Shown here: positions 3,302-42,725 of the stretch, piece by piece
Layout of the letters: every line of letters begins with the position of its first letter
Numbering within the stretch: the first letter of the stretch is position 1
NCBI RefSeq assembly: GCF_016026235.1
Contig: NZ_CP065613.1
Origin: Escherichia coli
GTDB taxonomy: Bacteria; Pseudomonadota; Gammaproteobacteria; Enterobacterales; Enterobacteriaceae
Length of the DNA stretch: 64,000 nt
Strand: one strand, 5' to 3'
The notes under the pieces: generated by a model
The model's input: the letters and a program-made list of their open reading frames with translations, nothing else
Told to the model about the DNA's origin: nothing
Database searches by the model: none
Position numbers and translations under genes: made by a program

Positions 3302-3356
3302 GGTGATGCTGCCAACTTACTGATTTAGTGTATGATGGTGTTTTTGAGGTGCTCCA

Positions 3357-3632
3357 GTGGCTTCTGTTTCTATCAGCTGTCCCTCCTGTTCAGCTACTGA
3401 CGGGGTGGTGCGTAACGGCAAAAGCACCGCCGGACATCAGCGCTATCTCTGCTCTCACTGCCGTAAAACATGGCAACTGCAGTTCACTTACACCGCTTCT
3501 CAACCCGGTACGCACCAGAAAATCATTGATATGGCCATGAATGGCGTTGGATGCCGGGCAACTGCCCGCATTATGGGCGTTGGCCTCAACACGATTTTAC
3601 GTCACTTAAAAAACTCAGGCCGCAGTCGGTAA
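3357..3632 (+). CDS. insA: IS1 InsA (transposition repressor)
   Basis: 91-aa [40 protein letters not shown]... with zinc-finger-like CxxC...CxxC; standard IS1 organisation. Confidence 0.9.
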
Positions 3633-4054
3633 CCTCGCGCATACAGCCGGGCAGTGACGTCATCGTCTGCGCGGAAATGGACGAACAGTGGGGCTATGTC
3701 GGGGCTAAATCGCGCCAGCGCTGGCTGTTTTACGCGTATGACAGTCTCCGGAAGACGGTTGTTGCGCACGTATTCGGTGAACGCACTATGGCGACGCTGG
3801 GGCGTCTTATGAGCCTGCTGTCACCCTTTGACGTGGTGATATGGATGACGGATGGCTGGCCGCTGTATGAATCCCGCCTGAAGGGAAAGCTGCACGTAAT
3901 CAGCAAGCGATATACGCAGCGAATTGAGCGGCATAACCTGAATCTGAGGCAGCACCTGGCACGGCTGGGACGGAAGTCGCTGTCGTTCTCAAAATCGGTG
4001 GAGCTGCATGACAAAGTCATCGGGCATTATCTGAACATAAAACACTATCAATAA
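3551..4054 (+). CDS. insB: IS1 InsB (transposase made as InsAB' by -1 frameshift)
   Basis: 167-aa ORF overlapping the insA 3' end; slippery A-run TTAAAAAAC at about 3604-3612 inside the overlap. Confidence 0.9.
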
Positions 4055-4069
4055 GTTGGAGTCATTACC

Positions 4070-4249
4070 CGTCGGGTCAATGTCAATGGTGGCGCGATCG
4101 CACTCGGTCACCCGATAGGCGCTTCCGGTTGCCGAATCCTGGTTTCTCTGGTTCATGAAATGGTGAAACGTAATGCCCGCAAAGGGCTGGCAACGCTTTG
4201 TATCGGCGGGGGCCAGGGCGTGGCATTGACCATTGAACGTGACGAGTAG
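4070..4249 (+). pseudogene. yqeF: 3' remnant (59 codons) of acetyl-CoA acetyltransferase (thiolase) yqeF, truncated by IS1
   Basis: Frame starting immediately after the IS1 right end translates [59 protein letters not shown], a typical thiolase C-terminus; no start codon or N-terminal domain. Confidence 0.8.
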
Positions 4250-5401: not shown

Positions 5402-6163
5402 ATGATTTTAAGTGCATTTTCTCTCGAAGGTAAAGTTGCGGTCGTCACTGGCTGTGATACTGGGCTGGGCCAGGGGATGGCGTTGGGGCTGGCGCAAGCG
5501 GGCTGTGACATTGTTGGCATTAACATCGTTGAACCTACTGAAACCATCAAGCAGGTCACGGCGCTGGGGCGTCGTTTTTTAAGCCTGACCGCCGATCTGC
5601 GAAAGATTGATGGTATTCCAGCACTGCTGGATCGCGCGGTAGCGGAGTTTGGTCATATTGATATCCTGGTGAATAACGCCGGATTGATTCGCCGCGAAGA
5701 TGCTCTCGAGTTCAGCGAAAAGGACTGGGACGATGTCATGAACCTGAATATCAAGAGCGTATTCTTCATGTCTCAGGCAGCGGCGAAACACTTTATCGCG
5801 CAAGGCAATGGCGGCAAGATTATCAATATCGCGTCAATGCTCTCCTTCCAGGGCGGGATCCGTGTGCCTTCTTATACCGCATCAAAAAGCGGCGTGATGG
5901 GTGTGACGCGATTGATGGCGAACGAATGGGCTAAACACAACATTAATGTTAATGCGATAGCTCCGGGTTACATGGCGACCAACAATACTCAACAACTACG
6001 GGCAGATGAACAACGTAGCGCGGAAATTCTCGACCGCATTCCAGCTGGTCGTTGGGGACTGCCGAGTGACCTGATGGGGCCGATAGTGTTCCTTGCCTCC
6101 AACGCTTCAGATTATGTGAATGGTTATACCATTGCCGTGGATGGCGGTTGGCTGGCGCGTTAA
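5402..6163 (+). CDS. kduD: 2-dehydro-3-deoxy-D-gluconate 5-dehydrogenase (SDR family)
   Basis: 253-aa ORF with SDR glycine motif VTGCDTGLG and catalytic YxxxK (YTASK). Confidence 0.95.
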   Translation: MILSAFSLEGKVAVVTGCDTGLGQGMALGLAQAGCDIVGINIVEPTETIKQVTALGRRFLSLTADLRKIDGIPALLDRAVAEFGHIDILVNNAGLIRREDALEFSEKDWDDVMNLNIKSVFFMSQAAAKHFIAQGNGGKIINIASMLSFQGGIRVPSYTASKSGVMGVTRLMANEWAKHNINVNAIAPGYMATNNTQQLRADEQRSAEILDRIPAGRWGLPSDLMGPIVFLASNASDYVNGYTIAVDGGWLAR

Positions 6164-16023: not shown

Positions 16024-17064
16024 TTATGGTGCAGGATAAGTATAAACCTGATGCACCGCTTCAATTTCAGCTAAAACTTCTTCGCTCAACTCCAGATGCA
16101 AACTTTCGACGTTAGTTTTCAGCTGCTCCATCGTGGTTGCGCCCAGCAGAGTGCTGGCAACAAACGGTTGACGGCGTACAAAAGCGAGCGCCAGCTGAGC
16201 AGGATCCAGCCCATGACGTCTGGCAATATCAACATACGCCGCGACGGCTTTTTGCGTTTGCTCACCGCTATAGCGGGTGAACCGACTAAAGAGCGTATTA
16301 CGTGCGCCAGCGGGTTTTGCACCGTTGAGATATTTCCCGGTCAGCGTGCCGAAACCCAGGCACGAATAGGCCAGCAGTTCGACCCCTTCATACTGGCTGA
16401 CTTCTGCCAGACCTACTTCAAAACTGCGGTTTAACAGACTGTAAGGGTTCTGAATGGTGACAATACGCGGCAGATCGTGTTTGTCCGCCAGATGCAGGTA
16501 GCGCATTACGCCAAATGCAGTTTCGTTCGACACGCCGATATAACGAATTTTTCCCGCTCGTTGGTACTCTGCCAGTGCGTCCAGCGTATCCAGCAGCGAA
16601 ACCGCAGGCGCAGAATCTGTCCAGCTATAACCGAGTTTGCCGAAGCAGTTGGTTGGGCGCTGCGGCCAGTGCACCTGATAAAGATCGAGGTAATCAGTCT
16701 GCAGACGCTTGAGGCTGTCATGCAACGCTTCGCGGATATTCTTCCGATCCAGCGCCTGATCCGGGCGGATGCCCTTGTCATTATTGCGCGACGGTCCGCT
16801 CACTTTGGAGGCGATAATTAACTTTTCGCGGCTGCCATGTTTCGCCAGCCAGTTGCCGACGTAGGTTTCGGTTAACCCTTGCGTTTCGGGGCGCGGAGGT
16901 ACTGGGTACATTTCGGCAACGTCGATAAGGTTAATGCCCTGAGCGACGGCATAGTCGAGTTGTGCGTGGGCGTCGGCTTCGCTGTTCTGTTCACCAAACG
17001 TCATCGTGCCAAGCCCCAGCGTGCTGACTTCCAGCGAACTGTGGGGTATACGGTGATATTGCAT
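16024..17064 (-). CDS. tas: NADP(H)-dependent aldo-keto reductase Tas
   Basis: The ATG at 17062-17064 gives the 346-aa protein MQYHRIPHSSLEVSTLGLGTMTFGEQ...; the 103-codon upstream extension in the ORF track is low-complexity and rejected. Confidence 0.9.
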   Translation of the reverse strand: MQYHRIPHSSLEVSTLGLGTMTFGEQNSEADAHAQLDYAVAQGINLIDVAEMYPVPPRPETQGLTETYVGNWLAKHGSREKLIIASKVSGPSRNNDKGIRPDQALDRKNIREALHDSLKRLQTDYLDLYQVHWPQRPTNCFGKLGYSWTDSAPAVSLLDTLDALAEYQRAGKIRYIGVSNETAFGVMRYLHLADKHDLPRIVTIQNPYSLLNRSFEVGLAEVSQYEGVELLAYSCLGFGTLTGKYLNGAKPAGARNTLFSRFTRYSGEQTQKAVAAYVDIARRHGLDPAQLALAFVRRQPFVASTLLGATTMEQLKTNVESLHLELSEEVLAEIEAVHQVYTYPAP

Positions 17065-17148
17065 AGCCGTTTCCTTTTTATAATCACGACATAAGGAATA
17101 TAAAAATGGCAGAGGGAAGGGAAAAGGGAAAGAGAAAAATCTTAAGGC

Positions 17149-17161
17149 CAGCCGGATGCTG
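17149..17161. repeat. IS4 target-site duplication, left copy (CAGCCGGATGCTG)
   Basis: 13-bp sequence identical to 18588-18600, immediately flanking the IS4 end. Confidence 0.85.
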
Positions 17162-18587
17162 TAATGCCAGTCAGTTAAGCAACTGACTGGCTCTTTTTCG
17201 GGGCTGTGGGGTATTTCCAGGGCCTCTCCTTTACCACTCTCGGGAAGGCCCTTCCCCTTCTCGTCGGTAATTTCACAAGTTGTCCCATACTTGCAAGATC
17301 GCGCATCAGCTCCGGTATACGTCCCGGTGAAGCGCCCTGCAATGTCATCAGCATTCTCATCACCATTCCGCATGATTCTGAGAAACTCAGTTGATTCGGC
17401 CAGTAACCTTTCAGATGTTCCGCCATTTTAATCATCTGATATCTCACCAGATTATAAGCCAGTAAGACACCCCACAGCTCTTGCTCCACAAGCTCCGGCT
17501 TTTTACTTCTCAGCGTCAGCCTGCTCAGTTGCATCGTCTGTTTTATCTCCCTGTATCCCAGTTCGATTTCCCAGCGATGACTGTACAGATCCGCCATTTC
17601 TCCTCCGGGGAAGCGCATGGCGTCCGTCATCGACGTCAGCAGATGGCAGACTTTTCCTTTGCGCGTCACGGTCAGCAGGCGGGCTGTCACTTCATTTCCC
17701 AGTCCCGGCCACTTTTTTCGTGCCTGCGGGCTGGTTTTCAGCTTCACCAGATGATCGCCTTTACCCAGTTTTCTGAGCTCTTCATATTGCGCTCCCTTTC
17801 TGAGAGGTATCATCCAGTGGCGGTGTTCTCCCGCCAGGCTCCAGGCATTTAACAGTCCCAGTGAGTAATAACCTTTATCCATTAACGTCAGAGTGTTATC
17901 GCCGGTTTGTTCTATAAGTTGCTCAGCAAGCTCATTTTCGCTGTTCTTCATCGTGCCGAAGGCTGCAGCCGTCAGCAGATGGCTGGTCAGTTCCATCTGG
18001 CAGACCATTTTGACCTGCGGGTAGAGCGCCGGGTTCCCGGCATGTGTCTGGCGGGGGAAGGCTGCATCGTTCTCTGGTGTATCCGGTGTGCGCCAGAACA
18101 CACCATCGATGGCCAGCAGGGTCAGGCCGCACCAGTGCGGATGCGGCGTGGCGTTATGCCAGAGCTGCGCTGTTTTCGTGAACACGCGGCGGACAGCCTC
18201 ACTTCCCAGGCGCTGGCGGGCCTGAATAACGGCACTGGGGGCAACGAAGGGGCGATTGCCCGGCAGCATGATGTCCAGGCGATTCACAATCTGGTGAAGA
18301 GGTTCTTTACGCTCAAGCGCCATGCCAACAATACACCAGACCATCATTTCGAGGGGAAGACGGCGCTTGCGTAGCGTTACAGTACCTGATTCGGCAAGGC
18401 AACGAGAGATGAGTTCGGGGTCGAGGTAATCCCCCAGAGAAGTCAGTGGGTTACGCAGAGAATCGTAACGGGATACCAGATCAAGAGCCTGTCCAATGTG
18501 CATAAAAAAATCCGGAAACAAGTGAGCGTTTCCGGATTCTTACACAGCCACTGGATCGGTCAACTGATCCTTAACTGATCGGCATTA
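17162..18587 (-). mobile_element. IS4 insertion sequence (1426 bp)
   Basis: Terminal inverted repeats TAATGCCAGTCAGTTAAG... (17162-) and ...CTTAACTGATCGGCATTA (-18587); 1426-bp length; one long transposase ORF; flanked by a 13-bp direct repeat. Confidence 0.9.
17175..18503 (-). CDS. insG: IS4 transposase (DDE family)
   Basis: ORF 17175-18521; likely start [18 protein letters not shown]... at 18503 (442 aa). Confidence 0.9.
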
Positions 18588-18600
18588 CAGCCGGATGCTG
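18588..18600. repeat. IS4 target-site duplication, right copy (CAGCCGGATGCTG)
   Basis: Identical to 17149-17161. Confidence 0.85.
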
Positions 18601-18610
18601 ACCTTATTTG

Positions 18611-18829
18611 TTAACGTTCAATAATTTGCGAAACATCATCACGGTTAATTTGCATCGCGTTACCTTGCTGATCGTGATAACTCACCAGCCCGGTATCATC
18701 ATCAATTTCAGGTTTTCCATCGGTCAAAATCATACGGCCATCTTTGGTCGCCATGACGTAATCACTGGAACACCCGGAAACAGCAAACGCCAGTCCGACT
18801 GCAGAAATTATTACTGCCCATTTTTTCAT
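18611..18829 (-). CDS. ygdR: Small DUF903-type lipoprotein YgdR
   Basis: 72-aa ORF with signal peptide and lipobox (AVSGCSS); paralogous to ygdI at 46954-47184. Confidence 0.9.
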
Positions 18830-42344: not shown

Positions 42345-42417
42345 TAAAAAGGCGCTGAATGGCGCTTTTTTATAGGAGACCAGAAACAAAAAAACACCTG
42401 CTAGGGTGTTCAATAAT

Positions 42418-42494
<77 letters not shown>

Positions 42495-42528
42495 TCACCG
42501 TACTGCTTTTACTTCATCAAATTTTGAT

Positions 42529-42605
<77 letters not shown>

Positions 42606-42648
42606 TCACCGTACTGCTTTACTTCATCAAATTTTAATTGGTTGCGGG

Positions 42649-42725
<77 letters not shown>

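Follow-up and report, generated by a model that had tools for sequence, protein, structure and literature searches.

The stretch of Escherichia coli DNA analysed here (64,000 nucleotides of contig NZ_CP065613.1, RefSeq assembly GCF_016026235.1; hereafter the window, whose coordinates are used throughout) contains a copy of the insertion sequence (IS) IS4 in the short spacer between the genes ygdR and tas, both encoded on the minus strand. IS4 spans positions 17162-18587 on the minus strand (1426 bp), its limits being defined by the inverted ends and by the 13-bp repeats on either side. The bracketing sequence, CAGCCGGATGCTG, is an exact direct repeat corresponding to the target-site duplication, with one copy on the tas side (17149-17161) and one on the ygdR side (18588-18600). 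These are the only two exact copies in the window, and a search allowing up to one mismatch yields four matches, compared with 0.14 expected by chance. The 18-bp terminal inverted repeats are imperfect: 16 of 18 positions match between TAATGCCAGTCAGTTAAG at the tas-proximal end (17162-17179, downstream of the transposase stop codon) and TAATGCCGATCAGTTAAG, the reverse complement of the ygdR-proximal end (18570-18587, upstream of the transposase). Elements of the IS4 subgroup measure 1400-1650 bp, have ends with the consensus -AATR--------WTW---- and produce direct repeats of 10-13 bp (PMC2266710, consensus in Table 1). The window copy agrees with this description in its length of 1426 bp, in its ends, which fit the -AATR- consensus, and in its 13-bp duplication, and the other IS4 copies that we examined have target duplications of 12-14 bp. 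The element is a genuine, complete IS4 (IS4 family, IS4 subgroup, in the sense of ISfinder), and there is no contrary evidence among our results for this structural conclusion.

The sole intact open reading frame (ORF) of the element, uninterrupted and without frameshift, encodes the IS4 transposase on the minus strand (17175-18503 from an ATG, 442 amino acids; 17175-18521 from a PGAP-style TTG, 448 amino acids). This protein matches the NCBIfam model NF033592 (IS4 family transposase) with an E-value of 1.4e-90 and 303.8 bits, for a cutoff of 115, and differs from InsG of K-12 by four amino acids. It exhibits the YREK signature at residue 307; the criteria for IS4 elements include a DDE catalytic core and the signature Y-(2)-R-(3)-E-(6)-K (PMC2266710). 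That this copy is competent for cut-and-paste transposition is suggested by its uninterrupted ORF, its intact ends, the perfect duplication and the absence of the element in the nearest relative (see below). In mutation-accumulation lines of K-12, IS4 transposes at a low rate, accounting for 8 of 758 new insertions (PMC5009759).

The insertion interrupts no coding sequence. The gene tas (16024-17064, minus strand) encodes an intact NADP(H)-dependent aldo-keto reductase of 346 amino acids that matches NCBIfam NF007912 over its full length (772 bits) and differs from the K-12 protein by four amino acids. The gene ygdR (18611-18829, minus strand) encodes an intact lipoprotein of 72 amino acids (NCBIfam NF033216), identical to that of K-12. 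IS4 begins 23 bp past the ygdR stop codon (18613-18611) and ends 97 bp from the tas start codon (17064-17062, minus strand). In K-12 MG1655, ygdR (2971271-2971489) and tas (2971597-2972637) are separated by an uninterrupted spacer of 107 bp, and in silico excision of IS4 together with one copy of the repeat produces a 107-bp spacer with 0 differences from that of MG1655. A first-pass annotation of the window had described a complete 1426-bp IS4 with a perfect 13-bp target duplication, located it beyond the ygdR stop codon and 97 bp ahead of tas, and gave the K-12 reference as free of an IS at this locus; the exact repeats, inverted ends and intact ORF, the coordinates and the MG1655 spacer bear out these three statements.

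In the reconstructed native spacer, a hairpin on the minus strand begins 4 nt after the ygdR stop codon and reads AAGGUCAGC-AUCCG-GCUGGCCUU followed by AAGAUUUUU. Its 10-bp stem (-15.5 kcal/mol, z = -4.1) precedes a U-run, so that the native site displays the features of an intrinsic terminator, i.e., a G+C-rich stem-loop, a U-run (AAGAUUUUU) directly after it and a position near a stop codon. The target of IS4 is the hairpin of this predicted intrinsic (Rho-independent) terminator of ygdR, and the 13 duplicated base pairs are the exact centre of the hairpin (loop-to-core offset 0). The insertion has split the structure in two: the ygdR-side remnant of the native spacer, CAAATAAGGT (18601-18610, minus strand), carries the 5′ arm, and the tas-side remnant, CAGC-ATCCG-GCTGGCCTT followed by AAGATTTTT (17135-17161, minus strand), is devoid of the AAGGT 5′ arm. 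In the folds, the ygdR side now has the 5′ arm and a 4-bp stem with no U-run, and the tas side a 4-bp stem with the U-run.

The distribution of the insertion was determined in a set of 5,426 complete E. coli genomes, in which a site was counted as empty at ≥80% coverage of the reconstructed site. The ygdR-tas site is empty in 5,417 of them, K-12 included, and both IS4 junctions are present in just five (about 0.1%): VR50, CUVM3, CPww7, AR_0013 and isolate AF57, with a best identity to the window junctions of 99.5%. IS4 itself is found in 2,686 of the 5,426 genomes, at 5,478 places in total, a single genome having as many as 32. No match came from an exact scan for the junctions in species-representative genomes, nor from a junction scan of metagenome contigs with a pattern valid for either orientation. 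The best match to the 24 kb surrounding the site is FDAARGOS_943 (100.0% except for IS4), which differs from the window by 14 single nucleotide polymorphisms (SNPs) over about 34.5 kb and by a single one in the 6,961 bp of flank nearest the site. In this genome the ygdR-tas site is empty and there is no IS4 elsewhere on the chromosome. The sole flank SNP within 7 kb, at window position 17040 (-121 from the junction), is nonsynonymous and affects codon 9 of tas, which specifies Ser in the window and in K-12 and Cys in FDAARGOS_943. Because the nearest relative has an empty site, the insertion would postdate a very recent split, with which the perfect duplication fits; the 100% identity of the window IS4 to other copies is also consistent with recency. 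Judged from these comparisons, the insertion is recent and strain-specific. The first-pass annotation, which had called it ‘probably recent’, is strengthened by the empty site of FDAARGOS_943, and the comparison with K-12 and B-lineage genomes that it had proposed found none of either among the five filled complete genomes.

In these five public genomes, in which it is annotated as an IS4-like element in RefSeq, IS4 lies at the same nucleotide and in the same orientation as in the window and is flanked by a 13-bp duplication. These copies differ from that of the window in their alleles (6-11 nt apart) and in their backgrounds (77-174 SNPs per 7 kb). A SNP matrix computed over 6,961 bp of flank separates the window from VR50 by 92 SNPs, from CUVM3/CPww7 by 77 and from AR_0013/AF57 by 174. 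The corresponding figures are 1 SNP between the window and FDAARGOS_943 and 4 SNPs between VR50 and K-12, both of these comparisons being with an empty site. The filled lineages are 50-174 SNPs apart from one another, and the filled genomes do not form a clade. SNPs between lineages extend near the junction, the window and VR50 already differing 250 bp from it, and no imported flank haplotype shared between filled lineages was seen in the flank comparison. The IS4 alleles at the site, which differ by 6-11 nt between lineages, have distinct affinities: that of the window shows 0 differences from the IncF-plasmid copies of S. flexneri and E. coli and from CFSAN029787, that of VR50 shows 0 differences from the K-12 insG allele, that of AR_0013 shows 0 differences from two other copies in strain CE10, and that of CUVM3 shows 9-13 differences from all other alleles examined. 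In AR_0013 and AF57, one copy of the duplication contains one mismatch (the tas-side copy reads CAGCCGGCTGCTG, locus positions 4188-4200) and the ygdR-side flank contains an additional SNP (ATTTTTT rather than ATTTGTT); on account of these two changes, their insertion is probably older and common to two isolates of one clone. Four alleles in four chromosomal backgrounds at one site therefore imply at least four independent transpositions and, as far as alleles and flanks tell, the ygdR-tas site has been hit by IS4 independently in at least four lineages. IS4 in the opposite orientation at this site was not found in any genome scanned. Both the recurrent use of the target in at least four lineages and the coincidence of the duplicated core with the centre of the terminator hairpin go beyond what the first-pass annotation had noted.

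The IS4 of K-12 (annotated ‘insertion sequence:IS4’, insG locus, NC_000913.3 4502090-4503515) resembles that of the window in its length (1426 bp), its termini (TAATGCC...), its single DDE/YREK transposase ORF and its 12-13-bp duplication, and the two copies differ at 6 of 1426 nt (99.6% identity). Whereas the K-12 copy is a chromosomal variant located at yjgZ-nanX, the copy at ygdR-tas in the window is the variant of Shigella and E. coli IncF plasmids. The window allele is 100% identical to copies on IncFIA/IncFIC plasmids of 217-294 kb from S. flexneri and E. coli (CFSAN029787, FDAARGOS_945) and 99.9% identical to plasmid copies of S. sonnei, S. boydii and S. dysenteriae; many of the 100%-identical copies are annotated ‘IS4-like element IS4 family transposase’. 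The IS4 variant of Shigella and enteroinvasive E. coli (EIEC) has been described as distinct from the chromosomal IS4 of E. coli and as probably spread via the invasion plasmid pINV (Hawkey et al., 2020; PMC7373316). The allele identity, with the lack of any IS4 on the chromosome of FDAARGOS_943, suggests that the donor of the window copy was plasmid-borne. The plasmid CP065612, which harbours an identical allele, was considered as a lead to this donor and dropped, as it belongs to FDAARGOS_945 and not to the nearest relative FDAARGOS_943. The supplements of the Shigella IS survey make no mention of ygdR, tas or ygdQ.

The strong target preference of IS4 is already known, and the ygdR site fits it. 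In the nine IS4 targets that we reconstructed, including ygdR, the 12-14-bp duplications lie within AAA..GC[CAGC-N5-GCTG]GC..TTT. The eight sites used for comparison are located downstream of rpoD/mug, metK, eno, argH and emrR, at the resident site of K-12, in IS66 on a large plasmid and in one coding sequence, and they present the same architecture as the ygdR site, i.e., an A-run, a G+C-rich palindrome and a T-run. Six of the nine targets, ygdR included, fold as strong hairpins centred 0-3 nt from the core. The preferred target of IS4 is said to be pseudo-palindromic, with the consensus AAA-N20-TTT. As at ygdR, the duplicated core (12-14 bp) at the terminator-like palindromes downstream of eno, metK, rpoD/mug and emrR coincides with the middle of a G+C-rich hairpin that has an A-run on one side and a T-run on the other. 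Compared with these, the ygdR site fits less well, with one G-U/C-A stem position, an offset A-run and a far lower occupancy. The A-run and the T-run are 28 bp apart at ygdR and 19-20 bp apart at rpoD, metK and eno. The ygdR site is a minor target filled in 5 genomes, compared with 75 in which IS4 occupies the eno terminator and 45 in which it occupies the metK terminator. The orientation of IS4 relative to the upstream gene differs among the rpoD/mug, metK, eno, argH and emrR sites. The match of the ygdR site to the preferred target would explain the recurrence at an identical nucleotide, and the shared architecture accounts for the BLAST alignments in which other IS4 copies matched the flanks of this locus for 18-29 bp past the IS ends. 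Insertion sequences that target palindromes or repetitive extragenic palindromes (REPs), such as IS1397, ISKpn1 and ISRm22, prefer extragenic palindromes, and their insertions are mostly intergenic and recurrent (Tobes and Pareja, 2006; PMC1525189). In contrast with their targets, the terminator hairpin at ygdR is present in single copy and does not belong to the REP family, and only 3 of the 11 IS4 copies of S. flexneri 2457T were associated with REPs (PMC1525189).

The first-pass annotation had also stated that IS4 separates tas from its native upstream sequence. This goes too far: the parts moved away from tas are ygdR and the left arm side of the terminator hairpin, whereas the adjacent 97 bp of native sequence, including the hexamer TATATT, remain attached to tas. 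This hexamer (17102-17097) is the only -10-like element upstream of tas and is accompanied by weak -35 candidates. At the opposite end of the element, an IS4-internal hairpin with a 15-bp stem followed by U7 (18506-18541, minus strand) lies immediately 5′ of the transposase ATG; the RNA fold of 18490-18610 on the minus strand gives -49.2 kcal/mol (z = -6.2). A promoter-like site, TTGACC-16-AAGAAT (18563 to 18536, minus strand), overlaps the 5′ arm of this hairpin. Because of this overlap, transcripts from the promoter of the element might lack the hairpin, and read-through transcripts from outside would form it. Such a layout could terminate or occlude read-through yet spare the transcripts of the element itself, a familiar way for an IS to block its activation from outside. 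Read-through from ygdR would enter IS4 at the end upstream of the transposase and is probably stopped there by the IS4 hairpin and the U7 that precede the transposase ATG. The tas-proximal end of IS4 contains a perfect 11-bp hairpin (17166-17191) that is terminator-like solely for plus-strand, inward transcription, with no U-run after it on the minus strand. As the T-run follows this hairpin on the plus strand only, transposase transcripts could in principle run into tas. A search of the IS4/tas junction detected no hybrid outward promoter. In all, tas probably keeps its own candidate promoter, and the insertion is most likely near-neutral, with a small effect or none on tas; an altered expression of tas is an unproven conjecture. 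The only co-mention of the two genes that we found in the literature is a microarray list in which ygdR and tas are similarly induced by acid shift (PMC2270276), and we found no published 3′-end mapping of ygdR transcripts.

We consider it very probable that the IS4 of the window results from a recent, strain-specific cut-and-paste insertion of a Shigella/IncF-plasmid allele into the ygdR terminator hairpin. The DDE transposase of IS4 would cut the two strands with a 13-bp stagger around the hairpin loop as centre, and repair would duplicate the core CAGC-CGGAT-GCTG; the site would be chosen through its fit to the preferred target of IS4, a G+C-rich pseudo-palindrome between an A-run and a T-run. 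Several points weigh against parts of this account and of its expected consequences. The donor copy is deduced from the identity of the alleles, and the orientation shared by the four events is weakly suggestive of an orientation bias (p about 0.125, n = 4). The proposals on ygdR read-through, on the tas promoter and on near-neutrality come from folding and consensus scans only, a strict promoter scan of the tas upstream region detected no sigma-70 site, and a literature search found no experimental data on a tas promoter, a transcription start or ygdR-tas co-transcription.

The identity of the nucleotide, orientation and 13-bp duplication in all six genomes could also be attributed to one ancient insertion event, followed by vertical inheritance and by precise excision from nearly all E. 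coli, and the mismatch in the AR_0013/AF57 duplication suggests some age in that lineage. However, the filled genomes are not monophyletic, the window being one SNP from the empty FDAARGOS_943 and VR50 four SNPs from the empty K-12; the site harbours four distinct alleles, three of them identical to copies typical of their own background; and thousands of precise excisions would be needed to produce 5,417 perfect empty sites. We give this scenario a negligible probability. Identical junctions would also be expected if one insertion had spread among lineages by homologous recombination of an IS4-bearing chromosomal segment, and E. coli recombines often. This appears extremely unlikely, as the IS4 alleles are 6-11 nt apart between lineages and the flanks keep the SNP pattern of the recipient lineage up to the junction: the window differs from FDAARGOS_943 only at -121, the nearest SNPs between VR50 and K-12 are more than 1 kb away, and the window and VR50 differ at 250 bp. 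The collapsed or misplaced repeat that the first-pass annotation had named as a possible source of error deserves consideration, since IS elements are common sites of misassembly. Yet the element is complete and bounded by a perfect duplication of the length that IS4 makes, its removal restores the native spacer exactly, and five complete assemblies, independent of one another, show this structure too, so that an artefact is hardly conceivable.

A selective advantage of IS4 in this orientation, by a change in tas or ygdR expression, for instance through read-through into tas from the transposase promoter or loss of ygdR termination, would account for four independent insertions in one orientation with none in the opposite one. 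The transposase is indeed co-directional with tas, and the end hairpin without a U-run on the minus strand makes read-through into tas possible. Nevertheless, target preference alone accounts for the recurrence, since the eno and metK terminator sites are hit far more often (75 and 45 versus 5 genomes); the insertion has a frequency of about 0.1% and nothing points to a sweep; the search for a hybrid outward promoter was negative; and the orientation bias is not significant at n = 4. Positive selection is thus highly unlikely to be at play. A bolder proposal would be that IS4 is a dedicated terminator-seeker that reads the structure or sequence of bidirectional terminator palindromes, and that its capture at ygdR in a single orientation rewires ygdR-tas transcription, for instance by linking tas with the promoter of the transposase or with read-through from ygdR, and is kept by selection in Shigella/EIEC-like and other lineages; we regard this as very improbable.

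Elsewhere in the window, a complete IS1 is present at 3302-4069 (768 bp, with InsA and InsB′ ORFs matching NCBIfam IS1 transposase models) without flanking 9-bp direct repeats. It joins sequences corresponding to K-12 positions 2984590 and 2998773, and about 14.2 kb of K-12 DNA are missing between them, comprising part of yqeF, yqeG-yqeK and ygeF-ygeQ (the ETT2 remnant region). Such a gap fits an adjacent deletion mediated by IS1. At the IS1/ETT2 locus, FDAARGOS_943 has another arrangement, with IS3, IS2, yqeG and a yqeF pseudogene. Together, the plasmid-type IS4 allele and the IS1-bounded 14-kb deletion suggest a Shigella/EIEC-like source strain. The sole internal repeats of the window, tandem units of about 110 bp at 42414-42717, correspond by colinearity with K-12 2947387-2947683 to the ordinary metZ-metW-metV initiator tRNA triplet.

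Neither IS4 nor its behaviour is new, and five public genomes already include an annotated insertion at the ygdR-tas site. The present analysis makes modest additions, i.e., the recency of the event in its lineage, the recurrent and independent use of a terminator as target, and an allele of the Shigella/IncF-plasmid type. These correspond to ordinary mobile-element biology, of little weight beyond strain typing, and an effect on tas, if true, would be of minor interest, the aldo-keto reductase being of uncertain physiological role. For typing, the insertion is a clean lineage marker, missing from the nearest sequenced relative and found in about 0.1% of complete E. coli genomes. The match of its allele to copies on large IncF plasmids of Shigella and some E. 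coli agrees with a published proposal in which plasmids of this kind deliver IS4 to chromosomes. Finally, an IS with strong target specificity gives rise to homoplasic insertions, at the same site by separate events, which could mislead phylogenetic analyses that use IS insertions as markers.

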